Shown in pieces: positions 53,950 through 59,860 of a DNA stretch of 64,000 nucleotides. The DNA lies in the IMG/VR virus record IMGVR_UViG_3300046355_000236. One strand, given 5' to 3'. Made by a program: the position numbers and the translations under genes. Below the pieces are notes generated by a model. That model was not told the origin of the DNA and did not search any database. It saw only the letters and a list, made by a program, of their open reading frames with translations. The DNA comes from a virus. Taxonomy: Duplodnaviria; Heunggongvirae; Uroviricota; Caudoviricetes. Position 1 is the stretch's first letter. Every line of letters begins with the position of its first letter.

Positions 53950-54027
53950 TGGTGCGGCCAATGGGATTCGAACCCATACTGTACAGATTTTAAGTCTGTT
54001 GCCTCCTACCTATTGCGCTATGGCCGC
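53950..54027 (-). tRNA. Leu-anticodon tRNA (UAA), atypical: short variable arm, enlarged D region, A73
   Basis: Perfect acceptor GCGGCCA/TGGCCGC; anticodon arm ACAGA-CTTAAAA-TCTGT; near-identical body to 54301..54377. Confidence 0.55.
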
Positions 54028-54028
54028 A

Positions 54029-54137
54029 AAACCATATTAAAACACACTGCTCACTATCTTTATGTACACTATTACATAGTGGGTTGCATATTGTTCGTGT
54101 GTGCCATGCAACTAGCGCCTCACAGTGTGTTTTAATA
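54029..54137 (-). ncRNA. spacer with perfect 19-bp terminal inverted repeat (long hairpin, RNase III-like substrate candidate)
   Basis: accatattaaaacacactg ... cagtgtgttttaatatgg, with inner palindromes cactat..atagtg and ttgcat..atgcaa; the stem includes the CCA end of the next tRNA. Confidence 0.5.
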
Positions 54138-54214
54138 TGGCGCGCCAAGAGGGATTCGAACCCCCGACATGCGGTGTAGAAGACCGCTGTTCTATCCAGC
54201 TGAACTATAGGCGC
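54138..54214 (-). tRNA. tRNA-Arg (UCU)
   Basis: D-arm GTTC-AGCTGGATA-GAAC; anticodon arm GCGGT-CTTCTAC-ACCGC. Confidence 0.7.
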
Positions 54215-54218
54215 AAAT

Positions 54219-54292
54219 TGGTGCTCTCGTCAAGAATCGAACTTGAGTTACATCCGTACCAAGGATGTGTAATGCCATTATACTACAAGAGC
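54219..54292 (-). tRNA. tRNA-Thr (GGU)
   Basis: Anticodon arm CATCC-TTGGTAC-GGATG. Confidence 0.7.
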
Positions 54293-54300
54293 ATTTATAT

Positions 54301-54377
54301 TGGTACCCACAGCGAGATTCGAACTCGCACTGTACAGATTTTGAATCTGTTGCCTCCTACCTATTGCGCTATGTGGG
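54301..54377 (-). tRNA. Leu-anticodon tRNA (CAA), atypical short variable arm, A73
   Basis: Perfect acceptor GCCCACA/TGTGGGT; anticodon arm ACAGA-TTCAAAA-TCTGT. Confidence 0.55.
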
Positions 54378-54594
54378 CATTATTAAACAGGATACGTTTT
54401 TTACTCTGCTCTACCAACTGAGCTACCCCTCCACTAAACTTATTCATCGAACTCCTCAGACGGTTACTCTAAGTCATAACGCTCTTCAAATCGTAGACCA
54501 ATACGACAGGAATAAGTTTAGTGGAGGGGGATGGAATTGAACCACCGACACGAGGCTTTCAATGCATTTTATGTTGCTGAATGTATCCTAAAAC
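54378..54594 (-). ncRNA. E3: permuted tRNA-like module with 20-bp acceptor-extension helix enclosing a ~65-nt loop
   Basis: RNA: T-arm GGTGG-TTCAATT-CCATC, CCCCTCC-A-CTAAACTTATTC [loop] GAATAAGTTTAG-T-GGAGGGG, TA, D-arm GCTC-AGTTGGTA-GAGC; flanked by GUUUUAGGAUAC.. and ..GUAUCCUGUU. Confidence 0.55.
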
Positions 54595-54596
54595 TT

Positions 54597-54686
54597 TGGC
54601 GGTGCGACTGAGACTCGAACTCAGAACCCAGCTTTCGCTAAGCGACAGATTAGCAATCTGCTCTAATACCATTATAGGACCGCACC
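54597..54686 (-). tRNA. tRNA-Ser (GCU), type II
   Basis: Anticodon arm CAGAT-TGCTAAT-ATCTG; long variable arm. Confidence 0.7.
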
Positions 54687-54693
54687 AATATTC

Positions 54694-54783
54694 TGGCGGT
54701 GTGTGGAGGAGTCGAACCCCGGCCAGCATTCGCCAACCGTCCGCTTTCCAGGCGGATGCTAGAACCATCTAGCTGCACACACC
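54694..54783 (-). tRNA. tRNA-Ser (GGA), type II
   Basis: Anticodon arm TCCGC-CTGGAAA-GCGGA; long variable arm. Confidence 0.65.
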
Positions 54784-54911
54784 AATAACAGGTTCAATTT
54801 TTTACGTGCTACCACTACACCAACGCGAAGACCAACTCGCGTCCGGGATTCGAACCCGGCCCCTCTTTTTTACAGAAAGATTATTTTTGATTGCTGAAAT
54901 GAACCTAATGG
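54784..54911 (-). ncRNA. E2: permuted tRNA-like module (T-arm, acceptor-like hairpin, D-arm; no anticodon arm)
   Basis: RNA: CCGGG-TTCGAAT-CCCGG, ACGCGAG-TTGGTC-TTCGCGT, TG, GTGT-AGTGGTA-GCAC, then GUAAAAAAUUGAACCUGUU; flank helix UAGGUUCA / UGAACCUG. Confidence 0.55.
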
Positions 54912-55035
54912 TCTAATTTAACAGGATGCTGTGTTATCGCCGGGAATCGAACCCCTATTACAAACACGGTCCCCAACTGGACGGCCTGGCAAAAGTGGCG
55001 CCATAAGTTGTTTGCTGTATTCATCCTAAAAATGG
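54912..55035 (-). ncRNA. E4: armless tRNA-like module (D-arm GTCC-AGTTGGG-GGAC then T-arm GGG-TTCGATT-CCC)
   Basis: No pairing acceptor stem; framed by AUUUUUAGGAUGA.. and ..GCAUCCUGUUAA. Confidence 0.4.
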
Positions 55036-55094
55036 CGGGACATTTAAAATTGCAGAATAAATTCTTTACAGAATTATATTTTTGTCCCATAACT
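55036..55094 (-). ncRNA. AT-rich hairpin spacer (GGGACA/TGTCCC stem, ~50-nt loop)
   Basis: Inverted repeat with inner palindromes agaat..attct. Confidence 0.3.
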
Positions 55095-55186
55095 TGGCGG
55101 AAAGCAGAGGAGTCGAACCCCATCCCCGTTAGGAGAACCTGGTTTTCAAGGCCAGTCGCAGGACCAACCCCGCTGCATTACTTTCC
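55095..55186 (-). tRNA. tRNA-Ser (UGA), type II
   Basis: Anticodon arm CTGGC-CTTGAAA-ACCAG (4 bp); long variable arm. Confidence 0.65.
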
Positions 55187-55194
55187 ATTATTCT

Positions 55195-55458
55195 TTAGAC
55201 ATCCTCATATGTTGCAAGGATGTGTTGCTCTTCAATGATGAAGAACGGAACTGCACCGAACTTTGAAGGTTGGGCTTTGCTCCAATCGATATACACATAG
55301 TCTCCGATCTTAACATCAGCTACATCTGGTCCTGTGGCAATCACTTTACCACGTGGGCTTTCTGATTCGTGCCCTTCAACAATAATACCAGATGCAGTAG
55401 CATTTGCTGGTTTAATCCGAGCAACTGCGACTTTATTTCCAATAGGAACTAGTGCCAT
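55195..55458 (-). CDS. GroES-like co-chaperonin (cpn10; T4 gp31 analog)
   Basis: 87 aa; KVAVARIKP...ASGIIV...GKVIATGPD...VKIGDYV matches the GroES mobile loop and roof hairpin. Confidence 0.65.
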   Translation of the reverse strand: MALVPIGNKVAVARIKPANATASGIIVEGHESESPRGKVIATGPDVADVKIGDYVYIDWSKAQPSKFGAVPFFIIEEQHILATYEDV

Positions 55459-58561: not shown

Positions 58562-58637
58562 TGGTGCTCACGTCAGGCCTCGAACCTGATCCTCCGCGTT
58601 ACGAGGGCGGCATACCACCAACTAATACTTCGCGAGC
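58562..58637 (-). tRNA. tRNA (anticodon undetermined; 9-nt loop CCUCGUAAC)
   Basis: Acceptor GCTCGCG/CGTGAGC; T-arm TCAGG-TTCGAGG-CCTGA. Confidence 0.5.
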
Positions 58638-58711
58638 TAATACAACAGGTTAGTTTTTGCGGTTTCAATTACAAGTTGAATGCTTTATGCTTGCTGAACC
58701 TAACCTAAAAC

Positions 58712-58787
58712 TGGTCTGAGTGGGGAATTCCGAGATCCCAACCTCCAGGTTCCAAACCCGGCCGTCTGCCTTTGACAATACACTCAG
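58712..58787 (-). tRNA. tRNA with UGG anticodon (Pro-like) but aberrant T-loop CTCGGAA; possible pseudogene
   Basis: Anticodon arm CCGGG-TTTGGAA-CCTGG. Confidence 0.4.
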
Positions 58788-58794
58788 ATAAAAA

Positions 58795-58870
58795 TGGTCT
58801 CCGTACGAGGATTTGAACCTCGACCACATGACCCCAAATCACGGACGCTACCAGATTACGCCATACGGAG
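58795..58870 (-). tRNA. tRNA-Pro (UGG)
   Basis: Perfect acceptor CTCCGTA/TACGGAG; anticodon arm CGTGA-TTTGGGG-TCATG; T-arm CGAGG-TTCAAAT-CCTCG. Confidence 0.65.
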
Positions 58871-58879
58871 ATAAAAAAA

Positions 58880-58964
58880 TGGTGGAGACGGATGGATTTG
58901 AACCACCGTGCTGTTAAGAACAGATTTACAGTCTGCCGCAATCGACCTCTCTGCCACGTCTCCA
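58880..58964 (-). tRNA. tRNA-Tyr (GUA), type II
   Basis: Perfect acceptor GGAGACG/CGTCTCC; anticodon arm GCAGA-CTGTAAA-TCTGT; 12-nt variable arm. Confidence 0.65.
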
Positions 58965-58968
58965 AAAC

Positions 58969-59050
58969 TGGTGGATGAGGTAGGGATCGAACCTACTTGC
59001 CGAAGCCATGGGGTTACAGCCCACTGCCCTACCATTAGAGCATCTCATCC
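58969..59050 (-). tRNA. second tRNA with GUA anticodon (Tyr-like), type II
   Basis: Perfect acceptor GGATGAG/CTCATCC; anticodon arm GTGGG-CTGTAAC-CCCAT; variable arm with UUCG hairpin. Confidence 0.6.
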
Positions 59051-59127
59051 ATTATACAACAGGATCCGGTTTGCTTTTCACAGCCAAAAGTGAAATATTT
59101 TGTGTTGCTGAAAGGATCCTAAAAATC
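59051..59127 (-). ncRNA. E6: minimal spacer element (hairpin TTTCAC..GTGAAA framed by UAGGAUCC / GGAUCCUG helix)
   Basis: + strand aacaggatccgg ... ttgctgaaaggatcctaaaaatc. Confidence 0.45.
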
Positions 59128-59201
59128 TGGAGCGGGTAGGGAGAATCGAACTCCACTCAGCGCAGCTTGGAAGGCTGGCGTCTCACCTTGAGCTTACCCG
59201 C
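59128..59201 (-). tRNA. tRNA-Gly (UCC)
   Basis: Perfect acceptor GCGGGTA/TACCCGC; anticodon loop CTTCCAA. Confidence 0.65.
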
Positions 59202-59454
59202 ATACCTTATTATAGTACATTTCCAAACAGGTGTCAACTGTTTGTAACCATTATCCACATCTTAATATAAGGAGCTACCAAATACCTCAATGGATCTTGA
59301 TCCTATCTGGCTATGATAGACACTTTTGACAAAAATGCACTATAATAAGGTGTCTAGCTACTCGACCCATCGAGCCCTAGACTGAGTGGTTACCCTGTCC
59401 GTTGAGTTACCTTATGGAAAGTACTCACAACACCCACGATATTCTCAAGATCCC

Positions 59455-59576
59455 CATGTAAGCGGGGTTTGGGGCTACTGCCGCTAAGCAGATTCGAGAT
59501 CGTGCGCGCCCAGGCTATTGTGGTATTGCCAATATACCCACTTTCGATAACGCTCAAAGTGTAAAGCGGGGTTTGG
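59455..59576. repeat. direct repeats gtaa(a)gcggggtttgg, two copies about 105 nt apart
   Basis: Copies at about 59455 and 59561; the second abuts tRNA-Arg. Confidence 0.4.
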
Positions 59577-59651
59577 TGCGTCCCGAGGAATTCGAATCCC
59601 CAACCTCACGGGTTCGTAGCCCGGTGCTCTATCCAGTTGAACTAGAGACGC
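59574..59651 (-). tRNA. tRNA-Arg (ACG)
   Basis: D-arm GTTC-AACTGGATA-GAGC; anticodon arm CCGGG-CTACGAA-CCCG. Confidence 0.65.
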
Positions 59652-59658
59652 ATTATTC

Positions 59659-59733
59659 TGGTGGAATCACGGGGAATCGAACCCCGAACTGAAGCTTGCA
59701 AAGCTACTGCGTTCCCAATTACGCCATAACCCC
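59659..59733 (-). tRNA. tRNA-Ala (UGC)
   Basis: G3.U70 wobble pair present (Ala identity element); D-arm GCGT-AATTGGGA-ACGC; anticodon loop TTTGCAA. Confidence 0.7.
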
Positions 59734-59782
59734 AAAGTGACTAGTATCTTATCCTATTATACGCGACTAGTCAACGCGAAGA

Positions 59783-59860
59783 TGGTGCCCACGGTCGGAT
59801 TCGAACCGACACTGTTCGGCTTCTAAGACCGTTGTCTCCTACCAATTGCACTACGTGGGC
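59783..59860 (-). tRNA. Leu-anticodon tRNA (UAG), atypical short variable arm, A73
   Basis: Perfect acceptor GCCCACG/CGTGGGC; same body family as 53950 and 54301; loop CTTAGAA. Confidence 0.5.

Follow-up and report, generated by a model that had tools for sequence, protein, structure and literature searches.

In Escherichia coli, leucine identity is conferred by A73, the A15-U48 Levitt pair, G18G19, and A20a; the anticodon and the long variable arm are not required, and a truncated, arm-less tRNALeu is still charged (PMC9976931). The same review, published in 2023, describes tRNALeu as long-armed everywhere except in animal mitochondria. Streptomyces coelicolor possesses one type-I tRNALeu(CAA) with the variable loop A44C45A46G47C48 (Fan, Huang, Ji & Wang, Nucleic Acids Res 2019; PMC6614811). 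Its leucyl-tRNA synthetase (LeuRS), ScoLeuRS, leucylated this tRNA in vitro with a kcat/Km of 6.25 s-1 uM-1, the value for the type-II UAA tRNA being 14.2; charging depended on A14-U8 and on a loop no shorter than 5 nt, and for E. coli, A14 and U54-A58 are listed as further leucine determinants (PMC6614811). ScoLeuRS needed a particular leucine-specific domain for the type-I tRNA and did not charge human mitochondrial tRNALeu, the type-I tRNA was also leucylated by the S. azureus and human mitochondrial LeuRS, and deletion attempts on its gene failed, so that the gene is apparently essential (PMC6614811). Here we describe tRNA-Leu(UAA), tRNA-Leu(CAA), and tRNA-Leu(UAG) of a tailed virus, encoded in a stretch of 64,000 nucleotides of IMG/VR record IMGVR_UViG_3300046355_000236 (the whole stretch is called the window below). 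They are very probably three functional leucine tRNAs of type I, i.e. with a short variable loop, within a minus-strand phage tRNA array. Our literature searches for arm-less phage tRNA-Leu returned no description of the phage lineage; one paper with biochemical work on an arm-less bacterial tRNA-Leu was found, the S. coelicolor study, and none on the phage lineage.

Structure of the three leucine tRNAs and their closest relatives

All three genes were called by ARAGORN and recovered with Rfam model RF00005 (gathering score 29 bits) at E-values of 1e-9 to 1e-11, and their scores lay inside the range of the other tRNAs of the window (Table 1). The UAA tRNA consists of the acceptor stem GCGGCCA/UGGCCGC, U8 and A9, the D arm GCGC-AAUAGGUAGG-AGGC, A26, the anticodon arm ACAGA-CUUAAAA-UCUGU, the variable loop ACAGU, the T arm AUGGG-UUCGAAU-CCCAU, and A73. 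The CAA tRNA has the same D arm, anticodon stem, and variable loop, combined with the anticodon loop UUCAAAA, the acceptor stem GCCCACA/UGUGGGU containing a G1.U72 wobble, the T arm GCGAG-UUCGAAU-CUCGC, and A73. In the UAG tRNA, the D arm reads GUGC-AAUUGGUAGG-AGAC with U11-A24 in place of C11-G24, and the anticodon arm ACGGU-CUUAGAA-GCCGA contains an A27.A43 mismatch, a U31.G39 wobble, and A37 instead of G37; the variable loop is again ACAGU and the discriminator A73. The sequence of this third tRNA recurs identically in five other IMG/VR contigs (L003, L011, L012, L023, and L034). Mutual identity among the three genes was 75-84% (CAA versus UAA, 84%), the D region and position 26 being nearly identical in the shared body UAGYGCAAUWGGUAGGAGRCAAC. 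The T stem directly follows the 5-nt ACAGU loop in all of them, leaving neither a long variable arm nor a variable stem. The A15-U48 Levitt pair, U8, A14, the D-loop GG, the UUCGAAU T loop, and A73 are present throughout, and the identity set read by E. coli LeuRS (A73, A14, A15-U48, the placement of G18G19 and A20a, and U54-A58) is complete.

Single-sequence minimum free energy folding gave no cloverleaf for any of the three tRNAs (z = -2.0 to -2.4). Because the D stem is weak and misfolding in silico is frequent for unmodified tRNAs, this result was set aside as evidence either way, and the structural argument therefore rests on comparison. When positions are counted from the two ends of the molecule, the D region comprises G10 Y11 G12 C13, a 10-nt loop AAUWGGUAGG, and A22 G23 R24 C25. 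G10-C25 and Y11-R24 are paired and are followed by G12.G23 and C13.A22; in an alternative given by Infernal, C13 pairs with a G and G12 is unpaired. At 11-24, the C-G pair of both the UAA and the CAA tRNA is replaced by U-A in the UAG tRNA, a compensatory change within the window itself. Positions 10-25 span 18 nt, one more than in E. coli tRNALeu and two more than in a standard tRNA. Class II tRNAs, E. coli tRNALeu among them, typically have a three-pair D stem with a 13-22 mismatch and a large D loop, and a class-II-style D arm is what the window tRNAs have, with a short stem, the C13.A22 mismatch, and a large AAUNGGUAGG loop.

These features were examined in a family set of 142 arm-less Leu tRNAs, all distinct, taken from bacterial genomes, isolated phages, and IMG/VR contigs, the first search pattern having been biased towards sequences with G12.G23. 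Pairs 10-25 (G-C, A-U, C-G, U-A) and 11-24 (C-G, U-A, G-C) were canonical in all 142 and covaried. At 12-23, C-G was present in 103, G-C in 6, and G.G in 33 sequences, and 13-22 was C.A in 133. The 15-48 Levitt pair was A-U in 129 and G-C in 13 without a single exception, i.e. this tertiary pair covaried perfectly. U8 and A73 were invariant, and the acceptor, anticodon, and T stems were 87-100% canonical with many pair types. Comparison thus showed that each of the three tRNAs is predicted to form a canonical cloverleaf whose variable loop has 5 nt. They conform to the consensus D stem (G10-C25, Y11-R24, C12-G23, C13.A22) except at 12-23, where they belong to the sub-lineage of 33 distinct G.G sequences, all from viral contigs. 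Members of this sub-lineage have intact stems with compensatory variation, invariant A73 and U8, and an encoded CCA, and the G.G is a deviation of the sub-lineage from a consensus feature and not from a trait that defines the family. A37 was found in 19 of the 39 UAG tRNAs of the set.

An earlier note on this DNA had reported the anticodons UAA, CAA, and UAG in the loops CUUAAAA, UUCAAAA, and CUUAGAA, a type-I architecture with a 5-nt variable region, A73, and a near-identical body. ARAGORN and the sequences agree with these readings, and automated analysis yielded neither another anticodon nor a long arm. The perfect acceptor stems described there stand except in the CAA tRNA with its wobble. 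The statement that no obvious D stem exists has to be replaced by the short, covarying stem described above. As for the two extra D-region nucleotides, the region is indeed enlarged, and its loop AAUNGGUAG is a normal tRNA-Leu D loop.

The closest known entity is the type-I tRNALeu(CAA) of S. coelicolor, whose defining traits the window tRNAs share, deviating only at 12-23. Common to both are a Leu anticodon, a 5-nt ACAGY loop (ACAGC there, ACAGU here), U8-A14, G18G19, a UUCGAAU-type T loop, and A73. For the remainder of the molecule, the comparison used Streptomyces CAA tRNAs from the genome scan described below, the loop of which is exactly ACAGC as in S. coelicolor tRNALeu(CAA), in place of the published sequence. 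These copies follow the same D-arm plan, GYCC-loop-AGRC with C13.A22, and 15-48 covaries, being G-C there and A-U in the window. The Streptomyces tRNA is the product of a chromosomal, apparently essential housekeeping gene and has an 8-nt D loop, C12-G23, and no encoded CCA, whereas the window genes are phage-borne, represent three isoacceptors, and have a 10-nt D loop, G12.G23, and an encoded CCA. Leucylation was assayed for the Streptomyces tRNA; the window tRNAs are known from sequence alone.

Canonical type-II tRNALeu, as in the E. coli isoacceptors, shares with the window tRNAs A73, C2-G71, A14, the A15-U48 Levitt pair, the AAUNGGUAG D loop with G18G19 and A20a, the short D stem mismatched at 13-22, A36-A37-A38 in the UUR readers (here the UAA and CAA tRNAs), and an anticodon that is not used for identity. 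The window tRNAs differ in having a 5-nt variable region instead of a long stem-loop (77-78 nt in total, versus 82-89 nt in the type-II copies of the fetched viral loci), one additional D-loop base, and G.G at 12-23; their CUN reader has A37 for G37 and would thus lack m1G37. The long variable stem-loop that defines type-II tRNALeu is absent, and the identity set is kept. Type-I tRNALeu of animal mitochondria, likened here by description, also lacks the long arm and uses A73 and A14 as identity elements, but it is organellar, often structurally reduced, and served by its own LeuRS.

Anticodons, codon use, and distribution of the arm-less family

A 19-mer D-arm query, GCAATWGGTAGGAGRCAAC, matched 34 IMG/VR contigs, and every match fell within a 77-78-nt tRNA called Leu by ARAGORN (UAA, CAA, UAG, or GAG), usually inside a large tRNA array and often adjoining a type-II Leu(GAG). 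The GGTAGGAG motif was accompanied by a Leu anticodon in 53 of 55 cases. One genome per bacterial or archaeal species was then scanned with the pattern GRC-N18-ACAGY-N4-GTTCRAATC, whose constraints are limited to the ACAGY loop, the T loop, and the 3' D strand, any anticodon being allowed. At least 120 loci were obtained; among the matches listed, 101 of 102 called tRNAs have Leu anticodons (CAA, UAA, UAG, CAG, GAG). The lone non-Leu match among them, with anticodon UCG and called Arg, stems from a Gemmatimonadales metagenome-assembled genome (MAG; L049). It lacks G18G19 and has a weak acceptor stem; it was not accepted as a true family member but taken as a degenerate or shifted copy outside the Leu family counts. 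The listed loci are mostly from Actinomycetota with the gene standing alone (77 loci with a single tRNA), and about 20, from Pyrinomonadaceae, Chloroflexi, and other MAGs, are tRNA arrays. In these listed arrays, the Leu isoacceptors are arm-less and all Ser tRNAs are long-armed, as are the Tyr tRNAs except in two arrays (L080 and L102). One body combined with anticodons from both Leu codon boxes, and with essentially no others, is expected under leucine identity, as LeuRS ignores the anticodon. The D region (positions 8-27) was also compared with all other tRNAs of the fetched loci. Type-II Leu tRNAs scored no better than those for Lys, Ala, Thr, and Val, and D-region likeness was therefore dropped as proof of descent from type-II Leu.

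Codon usage, which had been proposed as a check, was counted in a crude set of 67 open reading frames (ORFs; 13,769 codons). UUA, UUG, and CUA occur at ordinary leucine frequencies, the shares among Leu codons being TTG 25%, CTG 23%, CTT 20%, CTC 12%, TTA 10%, and CTA 9%. By standard wobble, the three anticodons read UUA/UUG and CUA/CUG, about two thirds of the phage Leu codons. For the NAMPT gene of the window, the closest solved homologue has Leu opposite the single CTA and five of the eight TTG codons and Ile or Val opposite the remaining three TTG, giving no hint of codon reassignment.

Prevalence was estimated from an independent sample of 120 viral loci, fetched via the T-loop variant GGTTCGATTCC plus CCA. 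This variant had not been found in the arm-less Leu sequences gathered until then, and the sample was thus not selected for Leu. Of 68 tRNA-Leu genes, 28 (41%) were at most 79 nt long, 39 at least 82 nt, and one 80 nt. None of the 37 Ser and 14 Tyr tRNAs was short; all were long. The rarity implied in the earlier note does not hold for this sample, and arm loss in Leu but not in Ser or Tyr fits the rule that, of the three synthetases, LeuRS alone needs no arm. The type-II Leu tRNAs of the fetched viral loci measured 82-89 nt, the arm-less ones 77-78 nt.

Isolated phages have such genes as well. ACAGU-family tRNAs are annotated as tRNA-Leu in cyanophage P-RSM6, Streptomyces phage Comrade, and Pseudomonas phage vB_PseuGesM_254, and close variants with other 5-nt loops occur in Myxococcus phage Mx1 (GCGUU) and Rhizobium phage P106B (AAAGU); S-CRM01 and others also appear in the BLAST lists. 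TrudiRoth (T5-like; 77 nt, UAG) and 4MG, both phages of E. coli K-12, represent other arm-less lineages with an E. coli-like D arm, ACGG/ACGU (AUGG/ACGU in 4MG), and the loop AUUUU; BLAST lists contain akin tRNA-Leu in many Vibrio, Salmonella, Klebsiella, and Cronobacter phages. Proteobacterial phages with arm-less tRNA-Leu thus include vB_PseuGesM_254, P106B, TrudiRoth, and 4MG. Like the window genes, those of P-RSM6, Comrade, Mx1, vB_PseuGesM_254, TrudiRoth, and 4MG are array genes of 74-78 nt that combine Leu anticodons with 5-nt variable loops. P-RSM6, Comrade, and the UAG gene of vB_PseuGesM_254 further share the ACAGU loop and the T arm GUGGG-UUCGAAU-CCCNC; the isolate-phage copies differ from the window in having C12-G23. 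The three window tRNAs are accordingly best regarded as ordinary members of a common and widespread arm-less phage tRNA type.

Near-twins of type I and type II were found in three cases. The CAA tRNAs of L193 and L167 are identical over the first 27 nt. The UAA tRNAs of L013 (type I, 77 nt) and L009 (type II, 85 nt) agree in their acceptor strands and almost entirely in the anticodon arm but differ in the D, variable, and T regions, and the neighboring tRNA-Leu(UAG) is identical in both contigs; this looks like a mosaic formed via recombination between the two tRNA types. The GAG tRNAs of L014 and L022 form the third pair. We deduce from these pairs that arm loss or exchange happened repeatedly. 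Among class II tRNAs, arm loss appears to be specific to Leu and to have arisen or been swapped more than once.

A further, unusual kind of tRNA was seen in the fetched loci. Long-arm tRNAs of 90-96 nt with the AUA-reading anticodon UAU, called Ile and containing about 20 extra nucleotides in the variable region, occur in L003 (10145-10234), L004, L005, L006, L014, L020, L025, and L027 and in the bacterial arrays L046, L092, L102, and L122. Their body differs from that of the Sec-like Ser tRNAs of the window (Table 1).

The surrounding tRNA array

The window is phage-like and has a G+C content of about 44%, and its ORF products include NAMPT, a NadR-like NMNAT/Nudix protein, a radical SAM enzyme, a TctC-like protein, and a Ro/TROVE-like protein. 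No LeuRS is encoded in the window, the longest ORF being 483 aa or less. A megablast search with the 7-kb array against isolated phages returned short, tRNA-sized matches only and no close isolate. The beta-type transfer-messenger RNA (tmRNA) and the TctC-like ORF are only a hint at a betaproteobacterial host. The gaps of the array contained no hidden type-II Leu; sub-threshold Rfam matches corresponded to two Sec-like Ser tRNAs and a tRNA-Gly(UCC), the latter located in the gene order where the related contig L003 has its Gly(UCC). The two Ser tRNAs resemble the "allo-tRNAs" of Mukai et al. 2017 (PMC5389517). The ARAGORN call with a 4-nt anticodon could be a degenerate tRNA or one with an 8-nt loop.

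Between some tRNAs lie permuted tRNA-like modules in the order T arm and 3' acceptor strand, hairpin, 5' acceptor strand and D arm, with a closing stem built from the recurring motifs GUUUUAGGAUnCAUUCAGCAA / AAAACGnAUCCUGUU. One of them matched the Rfam YrlA (Y RNA-like) model end to end, at a score below the gathering value. At the array's edge lies a DUF2828/DUF7788 ORF, the product of which is Ro/TROVE-like in appearance and named "RNA-binding protein" in some phage records. Together with the modules, it suggests phage Y-RNA-like RNAs with a protein partner.

Table 1. Features of the window discussed in the text, with positions, strand, and supporting calls
Feature	Position	Strand	Remarks
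tRNA-Leu(UAA)	53950-54027	-	Type I, 75 nt + encoded CCA = 78 nt; ARAGORN; Rfam 61.1 bits
tRNA-Leu(CAA)	54301-54378	-	Type I, 75 nt + encoded CCA = 78 nt; ARAGORN; Rfam 55.4 bits
tRNA-Leu(UAG)	59783-59860	-	Type I, 75 nt + encoded CCA = 78 nt; ARAGORN; Rfam 53.2 bits
tRNA array	50.7-61.2 kb	-	31 tRNA genes called by ARAGORN, of which one has an unassigned 4-nt anticodon, plus a permuted tmRNA
tmRNA	60795-61207	-	Tag ANDEKFALAA; RF04321 permuted tmRNA 119 bits, RF01850 betaproteobacterial tmRNA 106 bits
Sec-like tRNA-Ser(GGA)	54697-54784	-	Missed by ARAGORN; Rfam tRNA-Sec 50.9 bits, above gathering score; 9-bp acceptor, 6-bp D stem, 4-nt D loop, 4-bp T stem, long arm
Sec-like tRNA-Ser(UGA)	55099-55186	-	Missed by ARAGORN; 8-bp acceptor, 4-bp T stem; 36.7 bits
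Probable tRNA-Gly(UCC)	59131-59201	-	Missed by ARAGORN; Rfam 27.9 versus gathering score 29 bits
tRNA, isotype not assigned	58226-58301	-	ARAGORN; 4-nt anticodon AUAC; no Rfam report even at E = 1
Inverted repeat	54032-54049 / 54123-54140		Perfect, 18 bp, flanking 73 nt; fills the tRNA-Arg(UCU)/tRNA-Leu(UAA) spacer
Long hairpin	59204-59351		Akin to the repeat at 54032-54140
Long hairpin	60261-60388		Akin to the repeat at 54032-54140
Permuted tRNA-like module	57309-57424	-	YrlA match 25.1 bits (gathering 69), local E = 0.0012
Permuted tRNA-like module	54381-54600	-	
Motifs related to the modules	55012-55039, 58678-58718, 59097-59132, 59862-59932		
TctC-like ORF	47163-48041		
ORF	45976-47166		No match in tblastn against phages
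DUF2828/DUF7788 ORF	50852-52270	-	Edge of array

Decoding, charging, and alternative explanations

A single arm-less ancestor, duplicated and altered in its anticodon, is the most likely source of the three genes; such an alteration would leave identity intact because LeuRS ignores the anticodon. They would be transcribed within the array and then processed, the CCA being already encoded. Charging with leucine by the host LeuRS is inferred, since bacterial LeuRS reads A73, A14, A15-U48, the G18G19/A20a placement, and U54-A58, all of which are present. The UAA tRNA would decode UUA/UUG, the CAA tRNA UUG, and the UAG tRNA CUA/CUG and possibly more of the CUN box. Because the covered codons make up about two thirds of the phage Leu codons, the three tRNAs may supplement the leucine pool of the host.

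Several points weigh against this interpretation. In vitro, E. coli LeuRS failed to charge the type-I tRNA of S. coelicolor with leucine (PMC6614811), and charging by every bacterial LeuRS can therefore not be assumed. The sub-lineage to which the window tRNAs belong has G12.G23 where the consensus is C-G, plus one extra D-loop base, and the UAG tRNA combines the A27.A43 mismatch with A37 for G37. D-region similarity alone fails to separate these tRNAs from other type-I isotypes. The decoding check is a small sample, one gene (NAMPT) with zero TTA codons.

The G12.G23 mismatch with its weak D stem, A27.A43 in the UAG tRNA, and the failure of single-sequence folding to produce a cloverleaf would also be consistent with non-functional relics or with uncharged decoys soaking up tRNA-binding host factors. 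We consider this very improbable. The stems of the 33-member G12 sub-lineage vary in a compensatory manner under invariant A73 and U8 with CCA encoded, the UAG gene is identical in five other contigs, and the Rfam scores of 53-61 bits are in line with those of the other tRNAs of the window. A body charged with an amino acid other than leucine, with UUA, UUG, and CUA reassigned in the phage genes, might likewise be suspected from an architecture that departs from canonical bacterial tRNA-Leu and from the rejection of a related type-I tRNA by E. coli LeuRS in vitro (PMC6614811). Five Leu anticodons from two unrelated codon boxes on one body (101 of 102 listed scan matches and 53 of 55 for the GGTAGGAG motif), the retention of all LeuRS determinants, and the leucylation of the S. 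coelicolor family member (PMC6614811) argue against such reassignment, as do Leu codons at ordinary frequencies and NAMPT TTG and CTA codons aligned with Leu, Ile, or Val. In addition, the anticodons are sense Leu anticodons, none of them for a stop codon, on a body with Leu determinants, which is not what a recoding or suppressor tRNA would present. Recoding, which the earlier note had offered as an alternative, is thus not supported and is the least probable of the explanations. The other suggestion made there, non-canonical type-I Leu isoacceptors, is strengthened by the almost exclusive presence of Leu anticodons, the LeuRS identity set, and the ACAGY likeness to the leucylated Streptomyces tRNA.

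Arm loss itself might have been selected in order to escape host toxins or nucleases that recognize the class II arm, so that leucine decoding goes on when the host tRNA-Leu is inactivated. Of the class II tRNAs, Leu alone has a synthetase indifferent to the arm, so that phages could strip it there. MenT3 needs tRNA-Ser's variable loop: deletion of the loop abolishes long extensions, and its graft onto tRNA-Met confers them (PMC11541572). AbiEii has been reported as likely preferring class II tRNAs (bioRxiv 10.64898/2026.01.19.700257), and phage tRNAs counter tRNA-targeting defenses (PMC10264068, PMC11555353). Frequent and recurrent arm loss in phage arrays, as seen in the 41% of short viral tRNA-Leu and the near-twins L193/L167, L013/L009, and L014/L022, would suit this idea. 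However, no toxin is known to act on tRNA-Leu via its arm in phage infection, MenT3 prefers Ser over Leu, and such a defense would still disable the phage, as its Ser and Tyr tRNAs keep their arms. The rationale does not apply to the many Actinomycetota loci in which the same family is single-copy, with a member in S. coelicolor that could not be deleted, and loss of an arm that LeuRS does not need could simply be neutral. The idea is speculative, and we consider it unlikely that escape shaped the window tRNAs. Recurrent adaptive counter-defense against AbiEii/MenT-type nucleotidyltransferases or other class-II-tRNA-specific toxins, in which G12.G23 could be a further escape step, is to be judged just as doubtful.

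With leucine tRNAs of type I as the preferred explanation, the three genes can confidently be annotated as tRNA-Leu without any change in the genetic code. Contrary to the statement that tRNALeu is long-armed outside animal mitochondria (PMC9976931), phage tRNA arrays commonly contain arm-less tRNA-Leu (about 40% of the Leu genes in the 120 viral loci), and so do bacterial tRNA arrays and Actinomycetota. This wider pattern of common, Leu-specific, and recurrent arm loss is somewhat more interesting than the window genes themselves, and the arm-less family may be of interest for LeuRS recognition, orthogonal tRNA design, and tRNA-targeting phage defense.

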